Virus record (IMG/VR): IMGVR_UViG_3300037839_000499
Location: 901 to 64,900 of that record
Source: a virus
Taxonomy: Duplodnaviria; Caudoviricetes
Reading direction: 5' to 3' (one strand)
Length of the DNA stretch: 64,000 nt
The notes under the pieces: model-generated
Database searches by the model: none
What the model was told of the DNA's origin: nothing
Seen by the model: only the letters and a program-made list of their open reading frames with translations
Program-made: the position numbers and the translations under genes
Shown here: piece after piece, positions 4,035 to 30,170 of the stretch
Position numbering within the stretch: position 1 is the first letter of the stretch
Layout of the letters: each line of letters starts with the position of its first letter

Positions 4035-4038
4035 ATAT

Positions 4039-6066: not shown

Positions 6067-6299
6067 TGAAAAAGAGTAAGCCAAAAAAAAAGTCCCGCTC
6101 TTTGAAATACGAGAAAACAGCATTGAAGGTAAGTCCCTTGGGCCTTAGTTTTCCGGATAATTTTATGGCAATCATGGGATGGAAGCGAGTATATGAAAAA
6201 TAAGCCAAAGAGTCTTTCAGAAAAACGGAGAGCCAACAAATTCGGCGAGTGGAAAACATCCACTTACGGATCTGGCAAAGGCACCGAAGTCTACTGGTC

Positions 6300-10020: not shown

Positions 10021-13000
10021 ATGTCCTTACCCGATTTTGGTGGAACTGGAGTTGACGGCAAGCCAGAGGATAGCTTTGGTGGGCCAGAACCAGAGTATGT
10101 GCCGAGGACGAGGAGTGAGGCTCGGAGTCTTGAGCAGGAGCAAACAGGGAAGATCAAGGAAGCCACAAGGGCGTATAACTACGGATCAGAGCAAGCTCTT
10201 GAAGAGGCTGGTATAAAATACAAGACGGACGAGCAAGGATTTGTTCAACCCCGCTATGAACCGAATAATGAGTTTGGAAGGTCTGTTGAGTTTGGGACTT
10301 CGGAGTTCAAGGATCCGATTACCGAAGAAACGAGGCAGATTGATAAAACCGGAAAAGTTAAGCCCAAGAAACGGCAGAACGTAACGTATAAGTCTGGCGA
10401 CGCAAACAACCCTAATTTTCCCAATCCGTCTAGGATATACAGAGTATATACACGCGAGCAGGACGCTGGAGTTGAGGATCCCAATCAGCCTTTTGCAGCA
10501 ACTAAGGCAGAAGATATTGGAAGTGCTTTCGACTTGCAGGGGGTTTCAGATCAAGGCATTTCATCGCTGGCCAAGGAAGCCGTAAGGAAAAATAGGCAAT
10601 ACGAGCTTAGTTCGGCCAAGTCGGTGCTGGACGCAAGAGGCCAGCAGCTGGATGTCGAGTCGGAGACGTTCAAATCCCAGATCGATACCCTTAACCAAAC
10701 GCCAATCCCAGATTGGCAGCCCGACGGAGACAAAATGGATCCAGCCATCGCGGCGGAGGTTGGCGGTAAGGCTGACGCAAAAACTAGGCAAAATGTGGCC
10801 GCAAGAATTGGAATGTCCAGAGACCAGAAGATTGGCGAGGTCAGTTCGCAGTTGGCCGAAAAGAATAAGGAAAGAATCCGCAATCGTGCGCTCCAGGTCG
10901 AGCTTCAGTCGCAAATGTCCTTTGATGAGGGTGAGTCCATATATGACAACCGCGTTCAACAGCTTCTAAAGAATGGAGCAAAACAAGAGGATATTGATAA
11001 GGATCCGCTTATCGGAGCAATCCGAGAGGGGCTTACAAACATTCAGAAGCCTGTCCTGCCCTTGTCAGAGGTTTTCAAGGATCCAACGCTTGCCCCGCAG
11101 GCAATTTATGAAACAAGGGCATCCCAGCGTGAAAAGGCAAGAATTGAGGCCGAGGGAAGGCTTGCCAAGGAAAAGGCCACAGAATTTCTAAAGCCATTTA
11201 TTGAGCAGGCGGCCGACACGTCCATCAGTTACACGACATTGGCTGGGCGCAGAAATAGGCTTTCTTCTGTTTACAACAAACTTCTAGAGGACGCCGATTC
11301 ATCCGACACAAACCAGAAGGGATCTGGACTAAATCTGCGCGCGCAGGCGGCTGGTTACGCGGAAGCCATCGGAGTTCTTGACGACCAGCTTGGTAGAATT
11401 GGCAAGCAAGCCTTGATAGCCCAGGATGGGGCAAAGATTCAGGGTGAGTTTGCAAAAGAGAAGGAGCAGCGGGTTCAACAGGAGTTGAAGACCAGACTTA
11501 CGAAGCTCGAGCAAGAAACTGCGCTCAAGGTTGAGAAGTTTAAGCAACGCAAAGAGCTGGAAGATGGAGCCTTCATGGGCCCGCCGGCTCCTGAGGACAT
11601 TCCTCCATCCACGCCAACACAAGGTTCTCCGACCCAACCCACGACACCCTCCCAACCAGAAAGTCCGACAAGCTGGTTCCAAGGCGGTCTTAATAACCTC
11701 TTTAGCAAAGACACGATGCGACAAGCAACTCGAGGATACTTTGAGCTTAATCAGAAGTTTGCCTCTGGAACTTACCTTGCCGCCGCAAACTCGTTAAGAA
11801 TCCGCGGCCAAGAAATGCCGACAATGGGATCTGAGTTTGTTGGCGCAATGACCACATCCCCGTCTATGCCTGCCAAAATTATGGCGGTTCTGGGTATGGT
11901 CGACAGGCAGTTTGGAGGGAAACTTCACAATAAGGCCGCAAATTACTTTGAAGAATCTGCGACCGCAGCCAAGGAGAACGAGACAGCCATACGCAACGAG
12001 AAGTTCCTTGGAGCCGAGCCGGTAAGTCCAGAGTGGCGGGAAAGCGATGTCGGCCAAGTGGTCAAGTCGCTTACCGAGCTTCCGTTTTACATCGGCACAA
12101 CAATGATCAATCCGGCTGTCGGGTTTATTGCTACATTTGGCACGTCCTACGACGAGGCCATCCAAAACCAGCTGAATTCGGGAGTAAGAAATCCAGATCA
12201 TGTCACGGCCTTGGCTGAAGCAATCCCAGTAGCAGCAGCCGAAAGCCTTGGAAATATGGTCCAACTTGGACTAGCTAAATCTCTTGGCAGGAAGTTCATT
12301 CAAAACCTCGAAAGTATGACAGCTAGAAGCCTTCGTGGCCTTTTCGCAAGTGCGGCCATGAAAATCGGGGGAGGCTCTGCATTCGAAGGGATGGAGGAAG
12401 GCGTTCAAACGTGGTGGTCAAATATGATTGCCAAGCATATCGGTAAATTTGATCCAAACAGACCGCTAGATAAAGACGTTTGGAAAAGTATCTACGTTGC
12501 GATGTGGGCCGGTGGAGCTGGAGTTACCGTAATGGGAGGCGGAACTGTTGTTCTGACAGGCGCACAGAACGCACTCAATGAGCGTGGGCTTCGGAAACAG
12601 GTCGACGAAATGAGGACAGCTACCGAGGACATTCCTCTAAACGGATGGGAGGACTGGGGAAATAAACTTCCAGAGCAAGTGCTGGATCCTGGACTGGCTG
12701 AAAGTTTTGGCGAAATCGGTGCTGATCTTGATGAGCAACAAGGGCAATTCCTTGTTGGATTGGCTGACAGCATTAAGGGCGCGCCATTCAGAAGATTGCT
12801 GGAACTTGGCAAATCAATCGACGAAAGCATTAATCAACCGCCCGCTCTTCAAAGCCGAGCGGCCGGGATCCTGACCGGAGCCAAAAACGAACAATTGAAG
12901 GGTGAGGCAGACTTATATGCCGAAAGGGCTAACCTTGCCGCGATTATGCAGGGAGAGGCACAACTTCGCTTGCGTGTCGCAAGGGAGATTGGAACGCTTC

Positions 13001-16000
13001 CGACTGACCCTGTTGACGGCGGTCTGGATCAACAGGCGACTGGTCTTATCGCTGCCAAGGTTTTGTTTGGATCTAGCGGAGTTACCCAAGAGGAGCTGAA
13101 GGCAAAATACCGAGGGATGCCAATCATCCAAACCGACTCTAATGGTATTCAAGTGCCATCAGAGTTTGTGAAGCAGGACATATTTTCACAAGCGCCAACC
13201 ATGTCCGAACAGCTGAAAGGATTTTTAAGTCGGGTAGATCAAGCTATGGCAAAAGCGGAAGTTTCTGGCGGTGCGAGCGCAGAACCCCCAGAGCCACCGA
13301 AGCCAGAGCAGAAGCCAACCGGGAAGCCGAGACAAGTTGATCAAGCGAACCTGAAGACCCCGCGCCAGATCGCGGAGGCCAGCGCAAAGACAGGATCCCC
13401 CGCTCTGATGGCAAGGCTGGAAGGCACGACCCCGGACGAGAGATGGGCATCGGTTGAGTCGAAGATGAAAAATCTCGTAACAGCCATCGGCTCAAAGGGG
13501 CTGGATGTGAAATTTCTCTCTGATGACAGGCAAGAAGCATCTTCTGCCGGATTTGATGTGGACAACAAAACACTCCGTATCAACCTCAACCGAAAGGCTT
13601 TCATGGATATGGAGGGTACTGATCCAGAGGCAAACAACCGGTATGTAAGGGAAGAGATAGCTCACCTTGGAGACATTGCAGAGGGGGCATTGGACGCAAA
13701 AAGACAGGGCAAGGACAACTACCGCGAGCATTGGGAACAGCAACGCGCGACCATGCTTTCAAGAATCTTTAATGTCGCAAAGCAAGACAAGGCAGTAGAG
13801 GAATCGGTGGTAGCGGCTGCAAATCTTTATCTTGAAAACGTCTTTAGCAAGCCGATGACGGATGACGGCGGGAACAAGTTCTCGTCTACGAGCGCACCGA
13901 TGTCCGCCACGATGGATGCGCTTGTCCGTGGCGAAGTGATGCCTCAGTTCAAAACAATTTCAGATGTTCAGCGGTACATGGTTCGGAATGGGGTGGGCGG
14001 GGAGAAGGGTGTTCGTGCGATGCCCCTCTTTATGGCTGAGATGCTTCGGATGCTTAAGACGTATGGACAGCCCCAAACGGAATCTAGAAACTACCTCCGC
14101 ACGGCCGCGAAAACAACGGGAGGTTCGCGAGCCATTATCAAGATCATTTCCGATTACCTTCGAAAAGTATACAAAGCGCTGTTTTCCATTAAGGATAGCC
14201 TGGTCAAAGCCGACCCTCAGCTGGCTGAAGATTTGAGCAACCTCTTGTCTGAAATAGACGATGTTCTCTCTGATTCACCTAGCCAGCCAAGAGTGGAAAT
14301 AAATCCACGTAGCCCCAATGAGCCACAAGCTCCAGAGGCCAAGCCCCGCGCCCCACCCGAAACAGGTGAAAATGTCCCGCAACCGCCAGTTGAACCGCCG
14401 GTTATCGCCCCTCAAGGAGGAGGTCAAGCAGTTGGAACTATTGCACCGCCAGCGACAAGAATAGTCCCTCGAGGCCGGATGGTATCAGTTACCTATGACA
14501 AGCTTGGGTCTGGGGGAGTGGAATCAGTCACGGAACAAGTCCAGCTGACAAAGGAGCAAGAACTAGAGTGGGAAAAGGGCGAGGCGAATTACCGGCAGTC
14601 AGCGGAGATGGCTAAAAGGACAAAAGATCCGGCCATGCGCTCGAGCCGGATGCAAGGCGCTGGGTATGAGTGGGCGAAAAGAAAGAGGGAGATAACTGGC
14701 CGACTCCATTACAGGGAGCAGATGGAGAAAGAAGCCCGAGAGAAAAAAAATTACATCGGCAAGAAGGTTGGGATTCAGGCTGAGGAGGGGATTCTCTCGG
14801 CAACTATTATTGGGAATCCGTTCGGGCGGGTTAAGGTTCGGCTTGAGGACGGGCAAGAGCTTACGGTTCTGCCAGATCAGCTGACGAGCGCGCCCGAGAT
14901 CGAGCAAGACGAACCCACGACAATTCCATCTGGTCAAGTTGTCGATTTCCCAGTCAATAAGATCGTTGTTAACGACAAGATCCAGCAATTCAAAAAGAAG
15001 GCCAAGAAGGATTCGGGAGTCGTAAAAGCTCTAACTGGAGAATACCAAGCAACTCCGAAGAACCCGATTGTTATCTGGGAGCGAAACGACGGAGTGTTCG
15101 AGGTTATTACGGGCCGTCATCGGCTGGATCTGGCCAAGCGAAACAACATGGCAACAGTTCCAGCCCAAATCGTCAAAGAATCAGAGGGATGGACACAAGA
15201 AAAAGCTGAAACTTTCGATGCCGAAGCGAACATCCGCGACGGCCAAGGCGACCTCGAGGACTTTGCCTACTATTTTAGAAAGTCTGGAATCAGCCAGCAG
15301 GACGCCGAAGTAAAGGGTCTGTTGCGAGATGACGGCAAGGGGAAAGCTGGATTCTTAATCGCCAACGAGGCGACTGAAGATGTTTATGCAGGGCTAATGG
15401 CCGGCAAGGTGGACGCAGGGATGGCGGTTATTATCGCCTCTGGTGCTCCGAAATCTGTTGGAGCCGTCAATGAATCGATCCAGAGGGCGGCCTTGAACTA
15501 TGTTACTTCAGAAAGAGTAACCCAGCAGGACGTTCGCAACTTCATCTCAGGGATGATCGCAACGTTCGCCGATAAGGGGCCATCCGAGTCGCAATCAGAC
15601 CTGTTTGGTAGCGATGACTCCGCCTTGGAGCTGATGAAGCAACGAGCAAAGAAGGCCTCAAAGATCCAAAGGGATGTGCGTCAAAAGCTGAACGCAATGT
15701 TGAATTTCAAAAAGCTGAGCCGAGAGGGGCAGGCTCAAGCCTTAGAGGATGTAGGTGTAACCATAGCTGTGGGAGAAGACTCCGTGGCGAAGGTAAACCA
15801 AAAAATAACGGATCTGCAGGCCGAACTCGCCTCTTGGGAGAGATGGGCTACGGATCCAGAGAAGGTGGGCCAGATCGACCAAATGCCTAACATCAAGGCA
15901 CAAAGGATTAACATCCAGGCTCAGCGTATTGACGACACCCAAGAAGGAGGCGTAGACTCTAATAGTGAAGAACGAACTCAATCCGGAACAAGTGAAGGAA

Positions 16001-19000
16001 TACAGCCGACTGGCAGCGGAGGAGGCATATCCCCGACTGGTGAAGTGGCAACGGGACAACCCGGAGAACTTCAGAATGTGGAAGACGGACGCGGACGCCC
16101 TTTATCAGGATCCGTGGATCAACGACTTGACGGAGGATCCGGAGAGAACCAAGGATTGGCTGACAACGCTGTTCCGGCAAGCGTGCGGATCAGTAGAGGG
16201 CCACAACCAAATCTTGGCGCTCTTCAGTCGCTCCAAAGGAGAGAACCGAGAGTCGAAGTTGGGCGAACTGCTAATGTCGATGACGCTGAACGAGTTTTAG
16301 GCGAGGGTCTAGAAACCCAAGTTCCTTGGGTTCCGGTTATTCAGGGTAGCGGGGTTAGCCTAAAGACATTTGCTCCCGCTGGCATTGCGGACGAGATGCG
16401 CAGAAACTTGGAGAGAATCGACAGGGAGCGCGGTGGATTAGAGCAGTACGTAGCTAATGCGCTTGGCCTTGCAGACACTTCCGAGCTTTACCGAGTCATA
16501 AATCCAAAGGCTGGATCTAGGCTCAACAAGGAGCAAGTTGAGACAATCGCGGCCGCGCTTGACCGCATGGATGCAGGTAAGTCCTGTATTATTGGACATG
16601 AGATGGGCATAGGCAAGGGGCGCCCGTGCGCAGCTATCCTTTACGTGGCCTATTTGCGCGGCCAAATCCCGATCTTCTTTACGGCTAACTCGAGAACCTT
16701 GTATCCGACTCTAATGGATGACTTTAAGGATCTTGGATTCAAGATGGATCCATTTATTACCGACCAAGACTTTGAATCAGTAATGGGTGATGGAAGTGTT
16801 TTAACAAACAAGGGTAAAAATCCGAAGGCATTGTTCGATTCGATTGCAGCAAGCAAGAAATTGCCGACTGGCAAGACGATGATAATGACCACATGGGAGC
16901 AGGCGCGGCTCAAGGATGTGAACGCTGTTCTTAACGCCTTGGCTCCAAATGCGGTCTTCGTAATCGACGAGGCTCACAAAGGAACTGGCGATTCGCTCTC
17001 ATCGGAAGTTGCTCGAGGCATTCTGAAGAAAGCAAAAGGAGTGACGTTCTCCAGCGGAACAGCCATTAAGAATCTTGAGGCGATGCGCCTCTATTTCCCA
17101 TTCACTTCCGTCAATCGGGCCATTCCTTCCGTTCGCCGGCTAAACCAGCTTCTCAAGAAGTTTGCCAATCCTTTGCTCGAGCTGATGAATCGAGGCCTTG
17201 TCTCTGCGGGTGAGTATATTCGCTACCAGAGAGGCCTGACCCATAATGGCGAGCCGGTACCATTTACCGCATTGGCTCTACGTACTGGACCACAGGTTGT
17301 GGAGGTGAACGAGACGGCAAACGAAATCGCTGGCGAGTTAAAACAGATCCAAGCAGGGCCGTTTATGAAGCAGTTGCGCGGGGTGCTCATGCCTCTGGTG
17401 AAAACTAAGGCAGCCGCAATGATCGAGGACAAGCCCGAGCTGGCTGCAACGCTGACAATAAAAGTAGAGCCGTACCCCATGAAGTCGCAGTTCCACAATA
17501 TCGCAAACATCATGGTGCTGGCCTCGAAAATCCCCGAGATTTCAAAGCAGATTAAAGCCCTGGTCGATCAAGGCAATAAGGTGTTTGTAGCCTCTGACGC
17601 AACTGGGGAAGCCGCAGTACAAGAGTTGCTTGATGATATTTCGCTAGAAACCGACCCAAAGAATGCTTCGTTTGCGGATGCCCTTTCCCGATATACCGAC
17701 AAGCTAAAGTACATAACTATCACGGCAAAGGTCGGCCCCAAGGGTAGGCAACAGACCTTATTCCGCCAAAAGCTCGATCTGAATAGAGCGCAGGAAGAGT
17801 ACCCAGAGGCAGTAGAGAGAGCGCAACAAGTACTACAGCAGATTGCTGATGCCAAGAGCATGATTGAGTCCTCAAGGAATATTCTTGGGAGACTAGGCAT
17901 CTCGCCGATGGATTCACTCCGACAACAGCTGGAGTCAGTACAGATCCCAAGCGTCGAGATCTCCGGCCGGTCGGCCACAGTGATGCCTGATGGAACCCGC
18001 GAAAAGCGGACGGAGCTAGACCAAGACCGAATGGCCTCGCTTTCGATGTTTAACAACTTGGACGATATGAATGTAATTTCAGTTTCACGCTCTGGCTCAA
18101 CTGGGATTAACGCCCATAATTCCCCTAAATTTAACTCTCAAAAGGATCGCGTATTCTTTCTTTTGCAGCCGTCTCCGAACGTAGTGGACACAGTTCAGGT
18201 TGCCGCCCGCGTGAATCGAACCGGACAGCTGACGGCGCCTCACCTTTACATGGCCTATGCCGAGGAGTTGCCTGCAGAAAAGCGGATGATGGCTCTAACA
18301 GCCAAGAAGATGTCGAAGCTCGGAGCGTCAAGCACCGGCGGACAAAAGCTCGATATGTCGGAAACCTTTGGGGAGGACATGCACAACGCTTACGGAGATC
18401 TGGCAATGGCCAATGTTCTGGCAAGGGACGAAACATTCAGACAAGAGTTTCAGTCTAGGCATAACGAATACTTCCCAGGATCCAATGAAGAGGAGGTTCG
18501 GGCAAACCTAATGAAGGGAGCTGGCAACGGAGATGTGTTCAGAAGGTTTGAGCACATGCTTATCATTATGCCTTTGGACATTTACTCCCAAATTTCGGAG
18601 CAAATACGCGACGAATATAATGAGATCGTTGAGACGGAAAAGATGGCTGGACGATACAACCTCACGTCCGAAAAGATGGACTACAAGGCGGTGCTGGTGG
18701 ATGACATGCCGGGAATGGCCCCATACAGCCCCCGCAGGGAAGGCGAACCAGATATCGGGACCGCCCAGCCCACGCAACTTCGCAGATATCGATTTACCAA
18801 CCCAACGCCACCGCCGGCATCCGAACAGCTGATTAAGGACATCGACAAGGTGAAGGCCGATACGGCTCAACTTGTGCAGAAATACAACGAATCAGCGGAG
18901 AAATACCTGAGCGACAGGGTCAATTTGATTACAAGCCGATCCCGCCTTGATCCAAATGCAAGGAATCTGCTTATTCAGGCCATCACAAGAAAGATGGCGG

Positions 19001-22000
19001 TAGCCCAAGCGGCCGTGGCGGCTGCGGCTGAAAAGGTGGGCGGAGGCTACTGGTATCACATTAACGACACTCAAGTTCCAGTTTTTGTGACTGGCTTACG
19101 GCTGAACATTAAGTATCCGCATGTTGTCGCTTCTCAGCGTATGCTTATCCAAAGCGCGGGGTTCAACCATCTCATGCCGGTTCCAATTTCCGCCAACCCT
19201 CTTTCTCGGTTGGCATCGGCCCAAGCCGCTTTCAATAATAACCCGCTCGAGCAGAACGAGCTTGGCATCGAGATGCCCCTTCTGGACATCACTCCGACTG
19301 GCCAAGACTCCGAGGCGGCTTTCTATCGCTCATTCCAGCAGACGGAAACGTATGCAGCTGCAAAAGCTTGGGAGAACCATCCTTTCGCACTCCGAGAAAA
19401 ATACATGAGCTTCGCTATGGATAGAGCCGGGTATAGGCCTGGATTCTTCAGAGTTAACCGCAAATTCTCAGACGGAAAGACGGTGAATAGTCTTTATTAC
19501 GACGGGAACACGATTATCGAGATGTCTCCTGTGCGTACCCGCGAGATTCTTTCCTTTGTGTCTGAAAAGACTGAGAACGCCCAGACCGAAAAAGAGGTAG
19601 TTGACGCATTTGCTGAGGCGTTGGATGTAACGCAGGACATCGACACAATAACCGATGAGGGCGCGGTAGCTACGGATCAAGGGCAAAAGCAATTTGTAGG
19701 CAAGATGAACAACCGCCGGCGCAACCAAGTTGTATCTGGTGCGTATGACCGCGAGCGCCAGAAGGCGATGCAACAAGACCACTTCGTTATTGCTGGCAAT
19801 CCCTTGGTGGCTGCAGATATGGCGACTAGGTTGTTTGGCCAGCAGTTAAATCACCGCATCATGCGATTCACTAATCAGGACGGAAGTGAGACAACTGGCA
19901 TTGTTGTTCCCGCCCAAGCCGAGTTCAGTCAGCTCAGGAAGCTTTCAGACGTAATGAATACCAAAGAGACAATTCAGCGTTCTGATGCCGAGAGGGTGCT
20001 GGACTTCCTGAATAGCACCATCACAAGACACCATAACGCAACGGAGGTCGTGTTTACGGACGGAGCCACAATTTCATACGCAACCACAGAGGCAACGGCC
20101 ATTGAGACACCCCATTCACTCAAATCGATAATCCCAAATCGAGTGTGGGAAATGGCGCAAGATCAGCTGGCCGACTTATCTGTTGTGGAGGAGGGAGGAG
20201 TCCCTGATGAGGTCAGAGCGGAGCTTGAGAAGTTAGTTCCTGGAGCAAAGGTATCGGCAGAGGGGCCATACATTGTTGTTGCAATGGGTGGTTTTGATGC
20301 CGGAAAATACATCGCTAAGAGGATGGCGAGGGCTTCCGACAGGATCGCTACTGGCGCAACGCCTATTGAAGGTTACGCCTATTCCGGCCCCCGCTCAGTT
20401 CAAATTCACGCCCAGCGGATTGGGGATGAAATCACCCCAGAGATATGGAACTACTACCGGATCGCCACCCAACAGACTACTGACTCAGATGGGGGCGTGG
20501 GGCCGTCGCCAGCAGTTCGAATGGTTCTACGAATGTTCCCGAATATGGATGCCTCGTATGTGGAGGATTCAGCTGTTTCTGGTGTTCTGAAAGCCATTAA
20601 AGCTCTTGCCGTAATGCGGACGCAGGATCCGGGCAAGTTTGCCGAAATGGAGGGATCCATGACTCCTGAAGGCGGAATACCCAAGAAGATTTTCTCCTAC
20701 ATGGTCGAAGCCGCCAAAAACAGCGTGCTTACGTCCTACCAAAAGTTTGGGCAGTACGAGGTTGACCCACCCGAGCAACAAGGGATGCAGATGCTTGAGG
20801 ATGAGGAAACCGTGGCCGAGGTTCTGGCGGGTAGGGCAACCGCATTTAGCGATGATGAGGGGCCGGACATCGTTACTCCCAAGGAGATAGAAGAGACTGA
20901 GTTTACCAAGGCCCTGCGTAGCGACATGGAAGCCGCATTCCAGATTATTGATCCACGCTTGGCCCAAGTGTTTGTCGCTCACAACCGAGGAATGACATTC
21001 GAGGCAATTGCAGATGAATTTGCGTTGCCACCGATTATCGGGAAGGACGGGAAGCAACGCCCAAACAAGCAGATGGCCCAGCGTATGTACGATGATGCGC
21101 TCCGAGCCTTACAAGACTTTGCTGGTGACAATAGCTTGTTCGCAACCAACTCGAGGCCACAAAAGCCTGTGAGTAGGGCATTGCGGCTCGCCATGGAAGC
21201 AGGGCTAATTCGACCCATGTCGATCAACGCACAGCGGATCTACACAACCGATTCTGAGGAAGACGGTGAAACAGCGAACCTTGTTCGGCAGTTCCGTAGC
21301 ACCCAGCTTGGGCAGGCCATTGCGGCGCTTCGTTCTGGACCGCAACCAGCCGGCAACCTCATCCGTGGGATTGCGGAGCCAGCAAACGAAAACAATAAGG
21401 CGATCCAAGCCTACTACCGGCTTCTTAGCCAAGCCTTGGTCAAGGGTATTGAGGCCAACCCATCGTCATTCCTTGGCAGGGCATCAAATACCGACGTAGT
21501 AATCGATGAATCGATCCCAACGTCTCACTTCTCGTCGAGCAAAATGGATCCGTTTACGATGGGAATTATCCGGCTTCACCCTGGTCAATTGAGTCCGAGG
21601 GTAATTCTGCATGAATTTGTTCATGCCTTTACCGCTCAACTCATTGGAACCGAAATCATTAAGAATTTCCAACCTCGCCGTGGAGAGATGACTGGATCGA
21701 AGTATCGCGAGGCATTAACCACTTACGCCAACAAGCAACCCATCGATACAGACAACCCAACAGGGGCGATCCCCGCGATGCAGAGCCTTGTGAAGGCATA
21801 TCTTGGGGCATTGAAGTACGCCAAAGACGATGCCGGTCAACCGATTGAGAACGCAATCTTTGGTTCTGGCCTAACTGCCAGCTTCTCAATCACGTTGCCT
21901 ATGCACCGAGCGAGCTATGCCGGCGGATTGCATATGTCGGCGCACATTGATGCGTCCAATTCAAAGGCTATCTATGACCACTTTACCGAACTTGGGCTTG

Positions 22001-25000
22001 AGGGTAAGGCTGGAGTGCCGAATGACACTCTTGATGCCTATGTAAATAAGAATGGTTCGACCAATGACTTCTTTATCTCCAGTCCGGCCGGATCGCTTGC
22101 TGGCCTAGAGGTTGAGGCTGACGGAAAGCTCATACTTACCCCTTCTGGGCTAGAAAAGCTAAGGACTCAGAATGTAGCCCCTTCGGCATATTCAACTTAC
22201 ACCATACGCTCCTCGAAGCCTGTGTTTAAGCAGAGGATTCTGGGCGTGGTTGGCGATCCCACGAAAAGGGCGATGTCGATTCTCTATGGATTCAAGAACA
22301 TTGACGAGTTTTCCGCTGAAACGATGAGCAACCCTTCATTTGTGGGTATGATTGCTGGTCTGGATGTGCCGAAAGGGCTAACCAAGACCCCGCATGACTA
22401 TCTGATTGAATGGTTTGATCAGCTGGAGTCAGATCTGCTGAACCTAAAGGGTGGAATGAAGGGAGCCGTGAGGAACATGGCTGCCGGAACCCTAGTAGGG
22501 TCGACGGCTGGATCCTTGATGGACATCGGATCGATCAAGATTACCGATTATCAGACTATTCTTGGGAATCGAGAGTCAGCCACAAGGTCAGAATCTCCCA
22601 CACAACAAGGACAGCTTTTTGCCCAAAGGATCGGCGGAGATAGGCTTGAGGAGAAGATTACAAACACAATTCAGGCGATGCCAAGGGGCGGCCTAATTAC
22701 TACTACTAAAGGGGCATTCTCGATACGGCCGAGGGTTGGGTCGGATGGTTGGGTAACGAGGGGAATCGACAATCCAAGAAGGGTTATCACTAAGACCATC
22801 TCGGCCGCCGTTGCTGGGTTGCCCGGGATCCGCGGTATGGTGCAAGTGGTTAAGTCCTACACCCGCGATGACGTAGCCCCTTCGGATCTAGGCGGTGAAA
22901 AGAACCCATTAGCCTTGGAATACAAGAAGTTAACCGATATTCCGACCCCCACCGATGAACAGCGCAAGCGGATCTCAGAAATCGAGAGGTTTGCCACCAA
23001 GTACAAGATGCCAGGAGTCGGCGTTCAGCAAGCCTTGTTCGACACGGGCAAATACGCTGGGTCGCCCAATCGGCCAACGGGATCTACTCCATCCGTTATC
23101 GAGACTCCGCCAGCTAGGTTTATCGCACCCCAAATGGAGCTTGCCCTTAATGCCCAACGGATTGAGCCAAGCGGATCCCAAAAAATCCTTTCTGAAATTA
23201 ACCAGCTTCGCGCGATGCGTGACTCTGGCCAGTCCTACAACGAGAAGCGGTTGCGCCAACTAGAGTTTACTGCCAGCCAAACCAAGCTGGCCGGGTATCA
23301 GCCGGAAGGCCAGCTGATGGCCACAGAGACAAGCCTCAATCCAACAGTTCAGCCCTTTGCGTTAGAGCAAGAAACAAGGCCGGCAATGGTGCAACAGAAT
23401 TTGTTTGCTCAAAGGATTGATTACGACGACAACGGAAACCCTGTGGTTACGCCAAAGCCACTTACCCCAGAAGAGTTAATGTCTATCCGAGCCGACCTCT
23501 TGGGTGACTTGGGTAAAGATGCCCCAGAAGTGATGGCGATGTATCGCAAGTTACGTATCCAGCCATCTGGGGTTAAGACGCTGGGTGGAGTCTACCAAAC
23601 AGGCGAAAACGGCGGGCCGGCGAGAAGCTTGGCAAACCCTGGACAAACAGCCGAACAGCGGGACTTGATTAACGCGATGGATGCGATGCGTTTCCAGCGT
23701 GGGCTTGGGATTAAGCAGGATTCGGCAGTTGAGGACGCCGCCACTCAAATTCTTTCTACGCCGGAAGGTCGGCTTGGAGTCCAAGAGGCCGTTCTATCAG
23801 GTCAGTCTCTAAACACGGAAACAACATTAGCGGCCATGAAAATGGTCGGAGAGATGGTGCAAGAGGCAATTACCAGCGAAAACGCTGAGGACTTAGGTAA
23901 GGCATACGCTATGACGTACATGTATCGAGAAGCCAGATCCGAGACCGCTCGCTCCCTTCGGATTGGCTACGACAGGCTAATGACGCCAGCTCAGCGACAC
24001 TCTGAGTTTCTTATGGCCGTAATGGTTCAGCCTGAGCGAAACAGGATTCTTGAACTAAAGTATTACCCAACCGAATCCCAAAACCGAAGCGATATAAGAA
24101 GCTTGCAGGCAACACTTGAGGATTTGCTTAAGGAAAGAAACGACTTACTAGGCTCCCAAGGCAACTCGGAAGAGATGGCGGCCGTGCTGGAACAGAGGAA
24201 CGCCGAGATTCAAGCAATGCAGGCGCAAATCGCGGATTTACAGAATCGCGTGACTCGAGAGCAAGTTATGGCCCAAGAAGCACAAGAGAGGTTGGCGGAT
24301 GTAAATCGCACGCTCGCTGGCCTTGGAACAAGTCTCCAGCAGTTAATGAAGGAGTCCGAGCTTTCAGAAATTAGAACAGGACGGCCGGCTACCCAAATGC
24401 TGGATCAAGTGAGGCTTTCTCCAAAGGAACGTGAGGCGGTGGAGCTGATTATGATCGGGCATGACCCGGTTTCAGTTTCCAAGCAAACCAAAGTTAAGCT
24501 GGTGGATATTAAGGGTGCGATGGATGTCATGCGGTCTGAGGCCAAAAGAAGGTTTAGCCAGATCGCTCAAAGCGGGATGACCCGAGACCAGCTCCGCAAG
24601 GCGCTCCTCGAAAACGCAAGAACGGACGCTTCGATGAGGCAGATATTGGCCCAGCGGATTCCAGACAATCAGCCGTTGGGCGAGGAAGAGGCGATGGAGG
24701 AGATCTACAACATGCTGGGCCTTACGCTTACCCCAACTGGTGACTATAAGTGGGCTGAGCGCAAGGGCAAAAGCAACCTCTTCGACCTACGGAAACCAGA
24801 ACATATCGTGGTGCTTGCAAAATCCATTCAAGCCGGGAAGCCAACAATCGACGGAACTATATTTGAGGCTTACGTCGCAAGCATTTTCAGCGGATTCGCA
24901 ACGCAAATTGCAAATATGGCGATGACCCCACTTTCCCCAATCACAACATCTGTTCATCGCGGATTTCAAGCGCTTACTACATATCTTTTGGGCAAGGCCG

Positions 25001-26967
25001 GAATCAATCAAGAAGTCGAAGTTGACAAGATCGACAATCGGCAAGTCCCACTCTTTAAGCCAGGGACAGCATACAATAGTCTATCAGATGCGGCAGAGGG
25101 GGCAGGCCGTGAGATTGGATATATATTGAGAGCAGTTGTTCCGGCATTCTTCGAGGCGGTAACAATGGGTAAGTTGGCTTGGGCAACCGAAGCAGGATTC
25201 TTTGACTACAATGTTTCTGGAGTTCTTGAGGACATCGATGATCCACAGACAAGGTTTGGTGCGTTCCTGCAGAAGTACGGAAGAACGAGAAAGACAAGAA
25301 TACCCGGAAAGCTCGGGAAGGCGGTTCGCGCTCCGCTTCGCGGTCTGCTTGCTGCCGATGAATTCACGAAGACGTTCAGGGCATACATGAATGTTGGCGC
25401 GCATGCCTATCGGTTAGGCAAAGCCTCTGGTCTTAATGGTGCGGAGTTAAATTCATTTGTAGAAAAGGAGATTAATGGGGCTGGCTCAACAAGCTGGATG
25501 CTTGCGGCCCGCCGAGCAACCAAGGAGACATTCACATTCCAATTAAGGCCAGAAAACGGCCAAGTCCGCTCTGTCGGCGACTTTGCGGCCGAAAACGTAG
25601 GGCGACTCTCAGATTTTTACGCAAGCCTTGAAAACGCCGCAACTGCCATGGACGGGAATCCGCTATTTATGCCAGCTAGGGCGACCCTTCGCCTCATCCA
25701 GTCGTTTTTGGTTTTAATCAAAAGCCCATTCAATATTTACCGCGAAGGTTATGCCTACACGGCTCCTGCCATACTTAACTTAATTTCAAGAGCTAGGAGG
25801 TTTAAGGAGACCGAGGTTGCTGGCAAGAAAATCAAGTATCTGCCCGTGACCGAGTACGACGACTTTGTTGAAAGGCTAACAAGCTTTGGAATCGGAACTG
25901 CAATACTTGCTGGTTTCTTAATCGGGGGCGCAGAAGGAGATGACGATGACGACAAGAAGCTCTTGCTTGTTACCGGGACGCCAGATCCGCTGGCTCCAGG
26001 AGGACAGCGGGTAACTAGGTTTGGCAACTCTCCATTCAAAATTATTCTTAGGGGCGATTGGCTTAAGAGCCTCGGCGTTACTACTGGCGAATACGTCCTC
26101 GACTACAGCCGAGTCGAACCCATTGGAACCTTAATTTCGGCTAATATTAATATCGCCAGAACGATGAAGGAGACCTTCAGAAACCCAAGCCAAGCTGGAT
26201 CTGCTGGCGCAAATCTATTTAAGGACTATTTCTTGGCTCCCGGAACAAGAACCTACGGCAAAGCATGGCGCGATATGGTGAGCCTGTTTGATTTGGAGGG
26301 AAGCGGATGGCAAAGGGTCTTAAGGGACAAGTTATCCGCCATAATGTCGCCCAATTTATTCAAGCAACCGTTTGGTGGGATCCCCGAATATGAGAAGGAT
26401 GTTTATAATCCAGATCCATTAGCCGCAGATGCTCTTGCATTTGCGATCCTGCCAGGACTCGGAGACCAGCTAGGGATTCCTGATCGGCGCACATTCGAGG
26501 GCATGAAAGTTCCCAACCCAGTTCTGTACGATGGGGCCGGCCCAGCTGCAAGGTCAGTCGCTCGGCTATTGCCCGGACGATTCGGCGAAGGATTCGGGAA
26601 GACAGATTTCGAGAAATTCATAGACAACTACAATCGTCAACACCCTGACAAAAGGTGGAATCCAGACCTTTCTCGACCAGATCGATTCTTTGACGACAAA
26701 TATCTTCGCCAAAGGGTTGCCTTGACCAACTCCGAGTACGAGATGGTGCTCAAAATGGCCGCACCCAAAATAAAGGCCTATCTGTATGGGAATAGCGCGG
26801 AGAGCGGTACTTTATCTCAAAAGGACTTATCTGGCTTTATTCCAGAAGACCGCAAGGACGTAGTCCAAAGAACGATTTCTGGATTCTATCGGGATGCTAA
26901 GAAAGCAGTTGTGGATGCGCGGCACAGAAGAGAGCTGAAGGCTTTACAGTCTAGCCCCGCTAAGTAG
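10021..26967 (+). CDS. Giant polyvalent internal-virion/ejection protein (ParB-like, Strawberry-notch SF2 helicase, sigma70-like, zincin metallopeptidase domains)
   Basis: 5648 aa between terL and portal; PIVIW..ITGRHR (ParB-like), GHEMGIGKG / IDEAH / SRSGSTGINAH / QVAARVNRTGQ (Sno helicase), sigma region 2/4 patterns, LHEFVH..DEFSAE (zincin). Confidence 0.85.
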   Translation: MSLPDFGGTGVDGKPEDSFGGPEPEYVPRTRSEARSLEQEQTGKIKEATRAYNYGSEQALEEAGIKYKTDEQGFVQPRYEPNNEFGRSVEFGTSEFKDPITEETRQIDKTGKVKPKKRQNVTYKSGDANNPNFPNPSRIYRVYTREQDAGVEDPNQPFAATKAEDIGSAFDLQGVSDQGISSLAKEAVRKNRQYELSSAKSVLDARGQQLDVESETFKSQIDTLNQTPIPDWQPDGDKMDPAIAAEVGGKADAKTRQNVAARIGMSRDQKIGEVSSQLAEKNKERIRNRALQVELQSQMSFDEGESIYDNRVQQLLKNGAKQEDIDKDPLIGAIREGLTNIQKPVLPLSEVFKDPTLAPQAIYETRASQREKARIEAEGRLAKEKATEFLKPFIEQAADTSISYTTLAGRRNRLSSVYNKLLEDADSSDTNQKGSGLNLRAQAAGYAEAIGVLDDQLGRIGKQALIAQDGAKIQGEFAKEKEQRVQQELKTRLTKLEQETALKVEKFKQRKELEDGAFMGPPAPEDIPPSTPTQGSPTQPTTPSQPESPTSWFQGGLNNLFSKDTMRQATRGYFELNQKFASGTYLAAANSLRIRGQEMPTMGSEFVGAMTTSPSMPAKIMAVLGMVDRQFGGKLHNKAANYFEESATAAKENETAIRNEKFLGAEPVSPEWRESDVGQVVKSLTELPFYIGTTMINPAVGFIATFGTSYDEAIQNQLNSGVRNPDHVTALAEAIPVAAAESLGNMVQLGLAKSLGRKFIQNLESMTARSLRGLFASAAMKIGGGSAFEGMEEGVQTWWSNMIAKHIGKFDPNRPLDKDVWKSIYVAMWAGGAGVTVMGGGTVVLTGAQNALNERGLRKQVDEMRTATEDIPLNGWEDWGNKLPEQVLDPGLAESFGEIGADLDEQQGQFLVGLADSIKGAPFRRLLELGKSIDESINQPPALQSRAAGILTGAKNEQLKGEADLYAERANLAAIMQGEAQLRLRVAREIGTLPTDPVDGGLDQQATGLIAAKVLFGSSGVTQEELKAKYRGMPIIQTDSNGIQVPSEFVKQDIFSQAPTMSEQLKGFLSRVDQAMAKAEVSGGASAEPPEPPKPEQKPTGKPRQVDQANLKTPRQIAEASAKTGSPALMARLEGTTPDERWASVESKMKNLVTAIGSKGLDVKFLSDDRQEASSAGFDVDNKTLRINLNRKAFMDMEGTDPEANNRYVREEIAHLGDIAEGALDAKRQGKDNYREHWEQQRATMLSRIFNVAKQDKAVEESVVAAANLYLENVFSKPMTDDGGNKFSSTSAPMSATMDALVRGEVMPQFKTISDVQRYMVRNGVGGEKGVRAMPLFMAEMLRMLKTYGQPQTESRNYLRTAAKTTGGSRAIIKIISDYLRKVYKALFSIKDSLVKADPQLAEDLSNLLSEIDDVLSDSPSQPRVEINPRSPNEPQAPEAKPRAPPETGENVPQPPVEPPVIAPQGGGQAVGTIAPPATRIVPRGRMVSVTYDKLGSGGVESVTEQVQLTKEQELEWEKGEANYRQSAEMAKRTKDPAMRSSRMQGAGYEWAKRKREITGRLHYREQMEKEAREKKNYIGKKVGIQAEEGILSATIIGNPFGRVKVRLEDGQELTVLPDQLTSAPEIEQDEPTTIPSGQVVDFPVNKIVVNDKIQQFKKKAKKDSGVVKALTGEYQATPKNPIVIWERNDGVFEVITGRHRLDLAKRNNMATVPAQIVKESEGWTQEKAETFDAEANIRDGQGDLEDFAYYFRKSGISQQDAEVKGLLRDDGKGKAGFLIANEATEDVYAGLMAGKVDAGMAVIIASGAPKSVGAVNESIQRAALNYVTSERVTQQDVRNFISGMIATFADKGPSESQSDLFGSDDSALELMKQRAKKASKIQRDVRQKLNAMLNFKKLSREGQAQALEDVGVTIAVGEDSVAKVNQKITDLQAELASWERWATDPEKVGQIDQMPNIKAQRINIQAQRIDDTQEGGVDSNSEERTQSGTSEGIQPTGSGGGISPTGEVATGQPGELQNVEDGRGRPLSGSVDQRLDGGSGENQGLADNAVPASVRISRGPQPNLGALQSLQRREPRVEVGRTANVDDAERVLGEGLETQVPWVPVIQGSGVSLKTFAPAGIADEMRRNLERIDRERGGLEQYVANALGLADTSELYRVINPKAGSRLNKEQVETIAAALDRMDAGKSCIIGHEMGIGKGRPCAAILYVAYLRGQIPIFFTANSRTLYPTLMDDFKDLGFKMDPFITDQDFESVMGDGSVLTNKGKNPKALFDSIAASKKLPTGKTMIMTTWEQARLKDVNAVLNALAPNAVFVIDEAHKGTGDSLSSEVARGILKKAKGVTFSSGTAIKNLEAMRLYFPFTSVNRAIPSVRRLNQLLKKFANPLLELMNRGLVSAGEYIRYQRGLTHNGEPVPFTALALRTGPQVVEVNETANEIAGELKQIQAGPFMKQLRGVLMPLVKTKAAAMIEDKPELAATLTIKVEPYPMKSQFHNIANIMVLASKIPEISKQIKALVDQGNKVFVASDATGEAAVQELLDDISLETDPKNASFADALSRYTDKLKYITITAKVGPKGRQQTLFRQKLDLNRAQEEYPEAVERAQQVLQQIADAKSMIESSRNILGRLGISPMDSLRQQLESVQIPSVEISGRSATVMPDGTREKRTELDQDRMASLSMFNNLDDMNVISVSRSGSTGINAHNSPKFNSQKDRVFFLLQPSPNVVDTVQVAARVNRTGQLTAPHLYMAYAEELPAEKRMMALTAKKMSKLGASSTGGQKLDMSETFGEDMHNAYGDLAMANVLARDETFRQEFQSRHNEYFPGSNEEEVRANLMKGAGNGDVFRRFEHMLIIMPLDIYSQISEQIRDEYNEIVETEKMAGRYNLTSEKMDYKAVLVDDMPGMAPYSPRREGEPDIGTAQPTQLRRYRFTNPTPPPASEQLIKDIDKVKADTAQLVQKYNESAEKYLSDRVNLITSRSRLDPNARNLLIQAITRKMAVAQAAVAAAAEKVGGGYWYHINDTQVPVFVTGLRLNIKYPHVVASQRMLIQSAGFNHLMPVPISANPLSRLASAQAAFNNNPLEQNELGIEMPLLDITPTGQDSEAAFYRSFQQTETYAAAKAWENHPFALREKYMSFAMDRAGYRPGFFRVNRKFSDGKTVNSLYYDGNTIIEMSPVRTREILSFVSEKTENAQTEKEVVDAFAEALDVTQDIDTITDEGAVATDQGQKQFVGKMNNRRRNQVVSGAYDRERQKAMQQDHFVIAGNPLVAADMATRLFGQQLNHRIMRFTNQDGSETTGIVVPAQAEFSQLRKLSDVMNTKETIQRSDAERVLDFLNSTITRHHNATEVVFTDGATISYATTEATAIETPHSLKSIIPNRVWEMAQDQLADLSVVEEGGVPDEVRAELEKLVPGAKVSAEGPYIVVAMGGFDAGKYIAKRMARASDRIATGATPIEGYAYSGPRSVQIHAQRIGDEITPEIWNYYRIATQQTTDSDGGVGPSPAVRMVLRMFPNMDASYVEDSAVSGVLKAIKALAVMRTQDPGKFAEMEGSMTPEGGIPKKIFSYMVEAAKNSVLTSYQKFGQYEVDPPEQQGMQMLEDEETVAEVLAGRATAFSDDEGPDIVTPKEIEETEFTKALRSDMEAAFQIIDPRLAQVFVAHNRGMTFEAIADEFALPPIIGKDGKQRPNKQMAQRMYDDALRALQDFAGDNSLFATNSRPQKPVSRALRLAMEAGLIRPMSINAQRIYTTDSEEDGETANLVRQFRSTQLGQAIAALRSGPQPAGNLIRGIAEPANENNKAIQAYYRLLSQALVKGIEANPSSFLGRASNTDVVIDESIPTSHFSSSKMDPFTMGIIRLHPGQLSPRVILHEFVHAFTAQLIGTEIIKNFQPRRGEMTGSKYREALTTYANKQPIDTDNPTGAIPAMQSLVKAYLGALKYAKDDAGQPIENAIFGSGLTASFSITLPMHRASYAGGLHMSAHIDASNSKAIYDHFTELGLEGKAGVPNDTLDAYVNKNGSTNDFFISSPAGSLAGLEVEADGKLILTPSGLEKLRTQNVAPSAYSTYTIRSSKPVFKQRILGVVGDPTKRAMSILYGFKNIDEFSAETMSNPSFVGMIAGLDVPKGLTKTPHDYLIEWFDQLESDLLNLKGGMKGAVRNMAAGTLVGSTAGSLMDIGSIKITDYQTILGNRESATRSESPTQQGQLFAQRIGGDRLEEKITNTIQAMPRGGLITTTKGAFSIRPRVGSDGWVTRGIDNPRRVITKTISAAVAGLPGIRGMVQVVKSYTRDDVAPSDLGGEKNPLALEYKKLTDIPTPTDEQRKRISEIERFATKYKMPGVGVQQALFDTGKYAGSPNRPTGSTPSVIETPPARFIAPQMELALNAQRIEPSGSQKILSEINQLRAMRDSGQSYNEKRLRQLEFTASQTKLAGYQPEGQLMATETSLNPTVQPFALEQETRPAMVQQNLFAQRIDYDDNGNPVVTPKPLTPEELMSIRADLLGDLGKDAPEVMAMYRKLRIQPSGVKTLGGVYQTGENGGPARSLANPGQTAEQRDLINAMDAMRFQRGLGIKQDSAVEDAATQILSTPEGRLGVQEAVLSGQSLNTETTLAAMKMVGEMVQEAITSENAEDLGKAYAMTYMYREARSETARSLRIGYDRLMTPAQRHSEFLMAVMVQPERNRILELKYYPTESQNRSDIRSLQATLEDLLKERNDLLGSQGNSEEMAAVLEQRNAEIQAMQAQIADLQNRVTREQVMAQEAQERLADVNRTLAGLGTSLQQLMKESELSEIRTGRPATQMLDQVRLSPKEREAVELIMIGHDPVSVSKQTKVKLVDIKGAMDVMRSEAKRRFSQIAQSGMTRDQLRKALLENARTDASMRQILAQRIPDNQPLGEEEAMEEIYNMLGLTLTPTGDYKWAERKGKSNLFDLRKPEHIVVLAKSIQAGKPTIDGTIFEAYVASIFSGFATQIANMAMTPLSPITTSVHRGFQALTTYLLGKAGINQEVEVDKIDNRQVPLFKPGTAYNSLSDAAEGAGREIGYILRAVVPAFFEAVTMGKLAWATEAGFFDYNVSGVLEDIDDPQTRFGAFLQKYGRTRKTRIPGKLGKAVRAPLRGLLAADEFTKTFRAYMNVGAHAYRLGKASGLNGAELNSFVEKEINGAGSTSWMLAARRATKETFTFQLRPENGQVRSVGDFAAENVGRLSDFYASLENAATAMDGNPLFMPARATLRLIQSFLVLIKSPFNIYREGYAYTAPAILNLISRARRFKETEVAGKKIKYLPVTEYDDFVERLTSFGIGTAILAGFLIGGAEGDDDDDKKLLLVTGTPDPLAPGGQRVTRFGNSPFKIILRGDWLKSLGVTTGEYVLDYSRVEPIGTLISANINIARTMKETFRNPSQAGSAGANLFKDYFLAPGTRTYGKAWRDMVSLFDLEGSGWQRVLRDKLSAIMSPNLFKQPFGGIPEYEKDVYNPDPLAADALAFAILPGLGDQLGIPDRRTFEGMKVPNPVLYDGAGPAARSVARLLPGRFGEGFGKTDFEKFIDNYNRQHPDKRWNPDLSRPDRFFDDKYLRQRVALTNSEYEMVLKMAAPKIKAYLYGNSAESGTLSQKDLSGFIPEDRKDVVQRTISGFYRDAKKAVVDARHRRELKALQSSPAK

Positions 26968-29166: not shown

Positions 29167-30170
29167 ACGTCGCCGTAATCACAGCGGCAACCAAGCGGTT
29201 TAGTTACGCCCTTTATGGGTCGATCATGTCCGTTAAGAGGGCTATGGCTGGCGTCCCTTACACGCACATACTGGCAACGGACAAGTCTGGAGTGGCTGAA
29301 AAGATCATTAAATCCACAGGGGTAAATGCGATCATTCTGGAGCTGGACGTTGACGATGACTCACTCAAGTACAAGGAGGACAGCCAAATTGTAATAGCTA
29401 GGCTTCAGCAGGCCTGCCTAGATCAAGCTGTGGCCTTGGATGCAGATCTATGCTGGTCGGTAGAATCCGACATGCTGGTTCACCCAGACTCTTTTCGTGG
29501 CCTACGATGGACGCTTGATTGTCCTACCCCGACTTACGATATCGCCGTATCCACCTATTGGAATGGAAGCTTCCTGTGTGGGCGCGGAACCGAGAAAAAG
29601 CAGATTTGCGAGGACTACACAGAAGAAGAGAGGGAACTGCCCGAGGAACTTAAGAAGCAATTAGAAGGCAAGCGCAAGGAGTGGACGGCCTGCGTCGAGA
29701 AGAAGGAAAAGCCAAGCGAGGAACTGATGAAAGAACTGAGGGAGCTTGATGAAAAGATTAAGCAATGCCCGCCAAAGGGGAATGTATTTGCGCTTAATGC
29801 TACTAAATGGAGGAAGCGCGGCTGGCTGGATCAAGCGTATCCTGGGGCGGCCGTGCATGGAGCCGTACTTCCCACGGATTGGTGCGGGATGGGTTGCACT
29901 CTTTTAAGCAAGAAGGCATTGGCAGTTTCAAACTTTGATGGTTATGACGGCAAGGGAACTCAAGACCTCTACCTCGTTTGGAACCGATGGTCTCCGGCTG
30001 GCCTAAAAATAGCTTGTAACGTATCCGTCCCTGCATCTCACGTTAAAAAGGGCGAGGATGGGTACGTGGTGCACCAGCCCTACTTTAGTTCGCAGGACGA
30101 GGAGACGAGTGGACATATCCGCGTATACCCAAGAAAATACCTCGAACTGACAACCTATTCTCCTGCGTAG
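29163..30170 (+). CDS. GT-A fold glycosyltransferase-like protein
   Basis: CWSVESDM (DxD-like), TDWCGMGCTLLSKKAL, QDLY, SH motifs; charged coiled-coil insertion. Confidence 0.7.
   Translation: MNVAVITAATKRFSYALYGSIMSVKRAMAGVPYTHILATDKSGVAEKIIKSTGVNAIILELDVDDDSLKYKEDSQIVIARLQQACLDQAVALDADLCWSVESDMLVHPDSFRGLRWTLDCPTPTYDIAVSTYWNGSFLCGRGTEKKQICEDYTEEERELPEELKKQLEGKRKEWTACVEKKEKPSEELMKELRELDEKIKQCPPKGNVFALNATKWRKRGWLDQAYPGAAVHGAVLPTDWCGMGCTLLSKKALAVSNFDGYDGKGTQDLYLVWNRWSPAGLKIACNVSVPASHVKKGEDGYVVHQPYFSSQDEETSGHIRVYPRKYLELTTYSPA

Follow-up and report, generated by a model that had tools for sequence, protein, structure and literature searches.

A lineage-specific junction tag in a family of giant phage polyvalent proteins and its possible role as a cleavage signal

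The virus record IMGVR_UViG_3300037839_000499 is a single contig of 64,900 bases, rated 100% complete, from an uncultured short-tailed phage. The window analysed here is a stretch of 64,000 nucleotides covering positions 901 to 64,900 of this record, and all nucleotide coordinates below are those of the window. An open reading frame (ORF) at 10021-26967 on the plus strand encodes a protein of 5,648 amino acids (P0001), probably a polyvalent protein of the internal-virion or ejection type. The protein carries eight copies of the four-residue tag AQRI, and these copies and their counterparts in related giant proteins are the subject of this report. The gene lies among virion morphogenesis genes, flanked by the terminase large subunit (6249-8063, plus strand; PHROGs) and by an SU10-type portal (26977-29166, plus strand; PHROGs phrog_1216, E = 6e-23; Pfam SU10_portal, E = 1.9e-25), which lies immediately 3' of it. 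An SU10-type adaptor is encoded beyond the portal, as is the major capsid protein (34540-36129, plus strand; Phage_capsid_3 by PHROGs and Pfam), in which a relaxed motif scan finds no AQRI-like site.

The AQRI copies begin at residues 1960, 1967, 3464, 3737, 4201, 4378, 4463 and 4877 of P0001 (nucleotides 15898, 15919, 20410, 21229, 22621, 23152, 23407 and 24649). They are preceded, in that order, by IK, IQ, IH, IN, LF, LN, LF and IL, and all eight take the form [IL]-x-AQRI. A sequence-only reading of the stretch had listed these copies, positions and dipeptides, and every one is exactly as listed; its estimate of about 0.1 chance copies also agrees with the 0.109 computed here from composition (Poisson p = 4.4e-13). 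For [LIMV]-x-AQRI the expectation is 0.024 (p = 3e-18). The commonest four-residue word in 500 shuffles of the protein reached at most 5 copies, and the runner-up words in the real P0001 have 4. The eight copies are written with seven distinct 12-nucleotide codings, as the same reading had claimed in saying that the codons differ; since the codons vary between copies, the constraint acts at the protein level. The tag occurs in no other stop-to-stop frame of at least 100 amino acids in the six frames of the 64.9-kb genome, and relaxed variants of it are absent from the 32 other ORFs called at 19-43865 (8,658 amino acids), which include the capsid and the portal.

The features of P0001 are all on the plus strand. 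The N-terminal module (residues 1-1460; 10021-14400) was defined by homologue comparison at about 24% identity and is common to only P0009, P0010 and P0013-P0016. It contains an invariant NNR-x3-EE-x2-H-x2-D motif (residues 1205-1218; 13633-13674) common to P0001, P0009 and P0013, which might be a metal site; this region has no family match. A ParB-like region (residues ~1625-1812; 14893-15456) is weakly matched by PHROGs (phrog_3264, E = 1e-4; phrog_1033, E = 2.9e-4) and is followed by junction sites 1 and 2, which form the tandem IK-AQRI-N-IQ-AQRI (residues 1958-1970; 15892-15930). The next cargo is a strawberry-notch (Sno) type helicase (residues 2168-2799; 16522-18417; Pfam Helicase_C_4, E = 1.8e-16, with AAA_34 and ResIII), the sole find of Pfam over the whole protein. 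Site 3 (IH-AQRI, residues 3462-3467; 20404-20421) and site 4 (IN-AQRI, residues 3735-3740; 21223-21240) precede a HExxH zincin-like region (residues 3847-4120; 21559-22380) that is conserved in P0010 and P0013. Site 5 (LF-AQRI, residues 4199-4204; 22615-22632) and site 6 (LN-AQRI, residues 4376-4381; 23146-23163) lie beyond it, and site 7 (LF-AQRI, residues 4461-4466; 23401-23418) opens the family-wide C-terminal region. Residues 4463-4876 (23407-24648) form a conserved region with a coiled-coil stretch, seen in 109 phmmer domain rows among representative sequences. Site 8 (IL-AQRI, residues 4875-4880; 24643-24660) leads into the C-terminal module (residues 4877-5648; 24649-26964), which is mostly helical in prediction by AlphaFold2 (AF2) and defines the family.

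PHROGs searches with the eight AQRI-bounded segments give ParB-like matches only, and Pfam searches with the same segments at E <= 5 give only coiled-coil noise. Among the domain labels that had been proposed from the sequence, the Sno helicase is strongly and the ParB-like region weakly confirmed, whereas the sigma-like and zincin labels find no Pfam match and the coiled coil has weak matches only.

Full-length homologues of P0001 (5,528-5,746 amino acids) are present on other metagenome contigs. In seven proteins with 84-93% identity to P0001, AQR[ILV] is retained at the same sites. A decayed copy, AQTI, is found in these near homologues where two sites adjoin or after the loss of a cassette; at the tandem of sites 1 and 2, P0006-P0008 have AQTI as the first copy and AQRV as the second. 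P0006 and P0007 also have an inserted cassette of 96 alignment columns at site 6, and the tag flanks it exactly, as AQR[IL] on its left side and as [S/A]QRI on its right. A protein that begins MVQGSLF (P0012) was considered as the product of a naturally split gene whose start coincides with a junction. This was rejected, because its contig begins just 11 nucleotides earlier and the start is an edge artefact.

More distant relatives are numerous among metagenome-derived proteins. A HMMER search with residues 4450-5648 recovers 552 cluster representatives at E <= 1e-3, many of them 3,000-6,900 amino acids long. Neither a megablast search with the giant gene nor a tblastn search with the C-terminal module finds a match among 50,697 deposited phage records, and a two-peptide-pattern scan of species-representative bacterial and archaeal genomes returns no relative among 526 pattern matches. 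The relative P0009 (5,141 amino acids) matches P0001 in its first ~1,460 and last ~1,100 residues only, at 24-31% identity, and differs in the middle. It has no AQRI but carries its own repeat, [IL]-x-AR[TSL]S, in at least seven places. The helicase and zincin-like cargo of P0001 is common to P0010 and P0013.

Own tags of this kind recur across the family. The set scanned comprised 104 non-redundant giants of at least 2,500 amino acids that share the C-terminal module, with the near relatives P0002-P0008 dropped. At p<1e-6 a tag of the form L-x plus four residues is found in 30 of these 104, compared with 5 of the reversed and 1 of the shuffled sequences; at p<1e-5 the numbers are 41, 13 and 3. 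With [LIMV] in place of Leu, 29 of 130 proteins of at least 1,500 amino acids have a tag at p<1e-6, as against 2 reversed and no shuffled sequences. The tags of the relatives include L-x-AAPL, L-x-ARRS, L-x-SRGL, L-x-QSER[IV], L-x-TSPLP and L-x-ATERP, as well as L-x-ASPT, L-x-SSPA, L-x-SGRS and L-x-SRRA, with 3-12 copies per protein. Of 103 sites pooled from 19 lineages, 90 have Leu at the position where L, I, M and V were all allowed. Just before it, 53 sites have A, G or S; the variable residue after it is most often F (26), Q (14) or N (14); and the tag opens with A in 65 sites and with S in 22. The residues G, P, D, E and S are over-represented on both sides.

The tags also correspond at orthologous joints. 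In a five-way alignment, sites 4, 5, 7 and 8 are AQRI in P0001, while P0010 has LS-ARQI, LL-ARQI, VQQSLF-AREL and LM-AREA at the same joints. P0013 has SRGI or SRGL at these four joints (LF-SRGI at site 5, LR-SRGI at site 8), more weakly at site 4. The aligned joints of P0009 read AR.., ARTS and ARMD, with LF-AR.. at site 5 and LM-ARMD at site 8, and P0014 and P0015 have LF-AKVP and LF-AKAP at site 7. On a tree of the C-terminal core of 90 giants the tag types cluster: L-x-[AST][AS]PL occurs 62 times in one clade of 30 proteins, 21 of which have at least one copy, compared with 5 occurrences in the 60 proteins outside it.

The tag is thus uniform within a chain, is replaced at the same joints from one lineage to the next, and descends with the conserved backbone, not with the cargo. 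The sequence-only reading had proposed to check whether the motif persists while cargo domains swap; the relatives do have a tag, their own, at the same joints around different cargo. The comparisons indicate that AQRI is one lineage's version of a family-wide junction feature, which by the same evidence is much broader than was first seen in a single protein. Its general form, as deduced from the aligned and pooled sites, is a small residue, Leu, any residue, Ala or Ser, and three lineage-specific residues, set in flexible linkers. A junction signal acting at the protein level is well supported by these patterns. They are also as expected for a single sequence-specific reader that co-evolves with the phage backbone.

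The surroundings of the sites were examined in relatives and by structure prediction. Ten relatives scanned with Pfam contain ART-PolyVal (4 of the 10), Kinase-PolyVal, LPD1, LPD5, ddrB-ParB, InPase and PBECR5, together with RadC, Sno helicase and sigma-70 regions 2 and 4; no peptidase family is common to all ten. In six relatives looked at closely, no tag falls inside the reported best Pfam stretches and several abut one. In P0155, LPD1 (284-357) is followed by a site at 367, and a site at 603 is followed by an ART domain from 609. In P0115, LPD1 (2684-2756) is followed by a site at 2766. In P0121, an ART domain (1979-2104) lies between sites at 1930 and 2131, and a site at 2234 is followed by PBECR5 from 2236. 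The flanks of the eight AQRI sites in P0001 have a higher disorder propensity than positions drawn at random (P = 0.0002, with approximate scale values). In the AF2 model of residues 4877-5648, which has a predicted local distance difference test score (pLDDT) of 75 and a predicted template-modelling score (pTM) of 0.77, the first 10 residues past site 8 have a pLDDT of 39.

Several further observations concern the junctions. The end of LPD1 is followed after 8-10 residues by a junction of the form RETD-x-G-x-x-LF in two distant lineages (P0155, residues 284-367; P0115, residues 2684-2766), and there may be a recurring LPD1-junction unit; in P0115, sigma-70 regions 2 and 4 come after this junction. 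A Met is found 3-9 residues ahead of five of the seven P0001 junctions (sites 1, 4, 6, 7 and 8; P = 0.004), with no enrichment family-wide (23 of 103 sites). The pattern Q-x-x-L-F occurs six times in P0001 (residues 1858, 2577, 4196, 4336, 4458 and 5008) against 0.84 expected. Over the 104 giants, Q-x-x-[LM]-F shows an enrichment of about 2-fold (137 compared with 69.6 expected). The pattern is reminiscent of the bacterial beta-clamp-binding motif, QL[SD]LF. This motif was considered as the identity of the tag and rejected, because Q..[LIMV]F is present at only 7 of the 103 pooled sites.

The C-terminal module provides the link to the virion. A Foldseek search of its AF2 model against BFVD, in which a predicted structure is compared with predicted structures, gives 29 viral matches at E <= 1e-3 (E = 1e-8 to 4e-18, template-modelling (TM) score ~0.5). 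The matches include the 'internal virion protein' of Pelagibacter phage EXVC018P and of Synechococcus phage S-CBP3 (E = 1.7e-9 and 4.2e-9, TMq ~0.5), and several ART-PolyVal or LPD proteins are also among them. In the predicted models, the C-terminal 772-residue fragment resembles the internal virion proteins of T7-like marine podophages, and the giant protein may be read as an internal-virion or ejection protein with a train of effectors. A comparable case is gp47 of phi24B, a polyvalent protein of 2,811 amino acids that is found in the virion proteome and has been proposed to be an ejection protein; the portions of that account consulted make no mention of a junction tag or of gp47 processing (bioRxiv 10.64898/2026.04.10.717836). 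Unlike P0001, gp47 and the internal virion proteins of T7-like podophages are stand-alone or smaller. An acidic run in the C-terminal module, EGDDDDD (residues 5305-5311; 25933-25953), is near-invariant across the family, and conserved charged residues adjoin it.

The best reading of the sequence pattern is that the tag marks cut sites read by an endopeptidase, a reading with roughly even chances of being correct. P0001 consists of a conserved N-terminal module, then a series of exchangeable cargo cassettes, and finally a conserved C-terminal module resembling internal virion proteins, with the tag at the joints. Its cargo runs in the order ParB-like region, Sno helicase, an unassigned unit of 273 residues, the HExxH zincin-like unit and two small units. 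The putative reader would be one sequence-specific endopeptidase that co-evolves with the phage backbone. Cutting at the AQRI sites would divide the chain into about eight proteins of 1959, 1497, 273, 464, 177, 85, 414 and 772 residues plus a 7-residue spacer. If this took place in the head or after ejection, the effectors would be freed from the channel-forming end modules.

The exact bond could lie in one of three places. Zincins can have Leu at P1', papain-like enzymes Leu at P2, and assemblin and signal peptidase a small residue at P1. The cut could accordingly fall before the Leu, as for a zincin-like enzyme; between the variable residue and Ala/Ser, as for a papain-like enzyme; or after Ala/Ser, as for an assemblin- or signal-peptidase-like enzyme with Leu at P3 and the small residue at P1. 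The last placement is disfavoured in the APPT-type lineage, because Pro would fall at P1'.

Several results weigh against cleavage by such an enzyme. At p<1e-6, 74 of the 104 giants have no significant tag, which may be due to low copy number or to a real absence. Pfam finds no protease family in the 71 other ORFs beyond a sub-threshold CHAP match, and targeted searches of the genome for Peptidase_Prp, Peptidase_S78 (PF04586) and MPTase-PolyVal are also negative. The sequence-only reading had recognised no separate prohead protease in the window, and the Pfam scan and the PF04586 search agree. Foldseek of the C-terminal AF2 model against the PDB gives no match at E <= 0.001, and hence no protease-like match. 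The AF2 model of residues 3440-4560, made from a 9-row alignment, has a pLDDT of 35.5 and is too poor to show whether sites 3-7 lie in linkers; the proposed structural check of each segment thus covers only the last fragment, with its 10 low-confidence starting residues. Among the near homologues (with the N-terminally truncated P0003 left out), indels of at least 3 columns show no significant concentration around sites (3 of 10, P = 0.24), although two of the three large indels abut sites. Finally, the virion RNA polymerase of N4, which is polyvalent, reportedly enters the virion without being cut (Iyer 2017, PMC5512222).

The main rival to cleavage is docking without cleavage. The tag would then be a short linear motif for a co-evolving partner such as a scaffold, the portal, the capsid interior or a chaperone, and would pin the chain for packaging or ordered ejection. 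This explanation predicts the same signature of disordered linkers, uniformity within a protein and a tag type that follows the backbone tree. It is also consistent with the lack of a protease in the genome searches, with the presence of several tag copies (3-12) in each protein and with the position of the giant gene next to the portal gene. However, no partner could be named for it. The tags are located exactly at cassette borders, even around an 85-residue cassette and the 7-residue tandem, which fits cut sites better than anchors, and the order of a fixed Leu, a variable residue and a small residue is like protease subsite patterns. Docking seems rather unlikely.

If the tags are cut, the enzyme could be the embedded zincin-like unit (residues ~3847-4120) acting on the AQRI junctions of its own chain, as the sequence-only reading had proposed. 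The LHEFVH at 21607-21624 and the downstream DEFSAE are present in P0001. The HExxH and two downstream Glu residues (H3864, E3865, H3868, E4096 and E4100) do not vary among P0001, P0010 and P0013, whose sequences here are 26-32% identical, and a small-Leu-x-small site suits a zincin with Leu at P1'. Autoprocessing of this type has been proposed for polyvalent proteins (Iyer 2017, PMC5512222). However, HExxH is missing in 19 of the 30 tag-bearing giants, and its presence in the other 11, compared with 23 of the 74 giants without a detectable tag, shows no association (Fisher p = 0.65). P0009 has at least seven tag sites and no HExxH, half of the P0001 sites (4 of 8) are upstream of the zincin-like unit, and the region folded poorly in prediction. 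The segment has no match to Pfam MPTase or another peptidase, and MPTase-PolyVal is not detected in P0001 or the rest of the genome. The proposal gains no support as a general one: the unit is at most a candidate reader specific to its lineage, and it is unlikely to be the enzyme that cuts AQRI.

Other candidate readers were sought in the genome. A late protein of 198 amino acids (41048-41644) has a CHAP match below threshold (E = 1e-4; 23.2 bits compared with a cut-off of 26); it is the sole papain-fold candidate in the genome and is probably a lysin. An ORF of 335 amino acids at 29163-30170 overlaps the portal stop, and its nearest ESM Atlas clusters are viral GT-A-type glycosyltransferases (score 0.97); this post-portal protein was therefore rejected as a protease. 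Searches of PDB sequences with the neighbouring proteins of 512, 322 and 335 amino acids and with residues 3464-4876 of P0001 give no match at E < 0.1, and an ESM Atlas search with the 512-residue upstream protein gives nothing informative. A general prohead-protease site as the identity of AQRI was also rejected, because the 32 other ORFs contain no relaxed match and PF04586 was not found. Outside the virion module, Pfam matches among the 71 ORFs include Resolvase, Phage_integrase, ERF and RusA, which suggests a temperate lifestyle.

The tag could also be a recombination scar or a border used in module shuffling, inherited with the cassettes and with no biochemical reader. The cassette indel with tags at both borders fits this, as do the constant end modules around cargo that differs between relatives. 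The seven codings for eight sites do not, and 12-18 nucleotides are too short for homologous exchange. In addition, the helicase and zincin cargo is flanked by AQRI in one lineage and by SRGL in another; the same cargo with different lineage tags means that the tags change in concert independently of the cargo, which implies selection at the protein level. A scar is therefore very unlikely. A motif for a host factor, either a beta-clamp-binding-like Q-x-x-L-F or a host protease site such as that of signal peptidase I, could draw on the enrichment of Q..[LM]F in the giants and of Q..LF in P0001 and on the resemblance of L-x-A to the signal peptidase -3/-1 rule, but it is very improbable given the scarcity of Q..[LIMV]F at the pooled sites, the lack of a hydrophobic h-region ahead of the sites and the clade-specific residues at +2 to +4, which conserved host machines do not explain.

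Cleavage by a dedicated endopeptidase can be extended to a true polyprotein strategy, although the extension is speculative and on balance doubtful. An ejection protein and up to a dozen injected effectors would be made as one chain and released by an endopeptidase of an unrecognised type, whose specificity after Leu-x-Ala/Ser would drift in each clade together with the junctions. This enzyme may be part of the C-terminal region common to the family, or it may be another, uncharacterised phage protein.

Few phage proteins are as large or as poorly understood as the polyvalent proteins, and the idea that they are cut into separate effectors has stood as a proposal since 2017. With a precise and statistically solid junction tag, this proposal can be put to experiment at exact residues. 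The tag also supplies a rule for dividing the giant proteins when they are to be annotated, expressed or studied structurally. A protease that reads the tags, if there is one, may represent a new type of sequence-specific enzyme whose specificities have diversified in nature.

The closest known proteins are the phage polyvalent proteins defined by Iyer, Burroughs, Anand, de Souza and Aravind (2017, PMC5512222), who proposed processing mediated by a zincin-like metallopeptidase (MPTase). P0001 and its relatives are like these in having several conflict-type domains per chain (ParB-like and Sno helicase in P0001; ART-PolyVal, Kinase-PolyVal, PBECR5, InPase, LPD1, LPD5 and ddrB-ParB in relatives) and a gene located among head genes. 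The MPTase hub domain is reported in ~36% of polyvalent proteins and so is not obligatory (Iyer et al. 2017, PMC5512222). Unlike the MPTase scheme, so far as the consulted parts of that paper describe it, the P0001 family has a precise lineage-specific tag that is not associated with HExxH. In the main text of that paper the word 'linker' is absent, and no junction motif was met in the parts consulted. A literature search, which extended to publications other than the supplements of that paper, found no published description of such a junction tag.

Prohead-protease systems offer a second comparison. The sites of T4 gp21 and of phiKZ-type prohead proteases serve the maturation of internal and ejection proteins. 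In such systems, of which gp245 of SPN3US is a reported case (PMC10052503), head-packaged and ejected proteins are cut at a short consensus, and this is comparable to the proposed cutting of P0001. The difference is that the tag is confined to P0001 and that no prohead protease family was found in the complete genome.

MARTX-type toxins undergo autoprocessing in interdomain linkers by an identified cysteine protease domain, by which effectors are released. The giant phage proteins are like these toxins in their conserved delivery end regions, swappable central effector cassettes and a Leu-containing site in unstructured linkers. They differ in that some residues of the P0001 tag are specific to the lineage, in that the Leu and the small residue are one residue further apart, and in that no protease was found.

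The polyproteins of RNA viruses are a further parallel. The junctions cut by picornavirus 3C and the coronavirus main protease have a consensus that is common to a chain, varies from one related virus to another and evolves together with the protease. These viruses carry a known protease in the chain, whereas P0001 comes from a double-stranded DNA tailed phage in which no protease was found. As in the viral polyproteins, P0001 has one consensus per chain (8 of 8 sites), and this consensus differs at the orthologous junctions of related chains.

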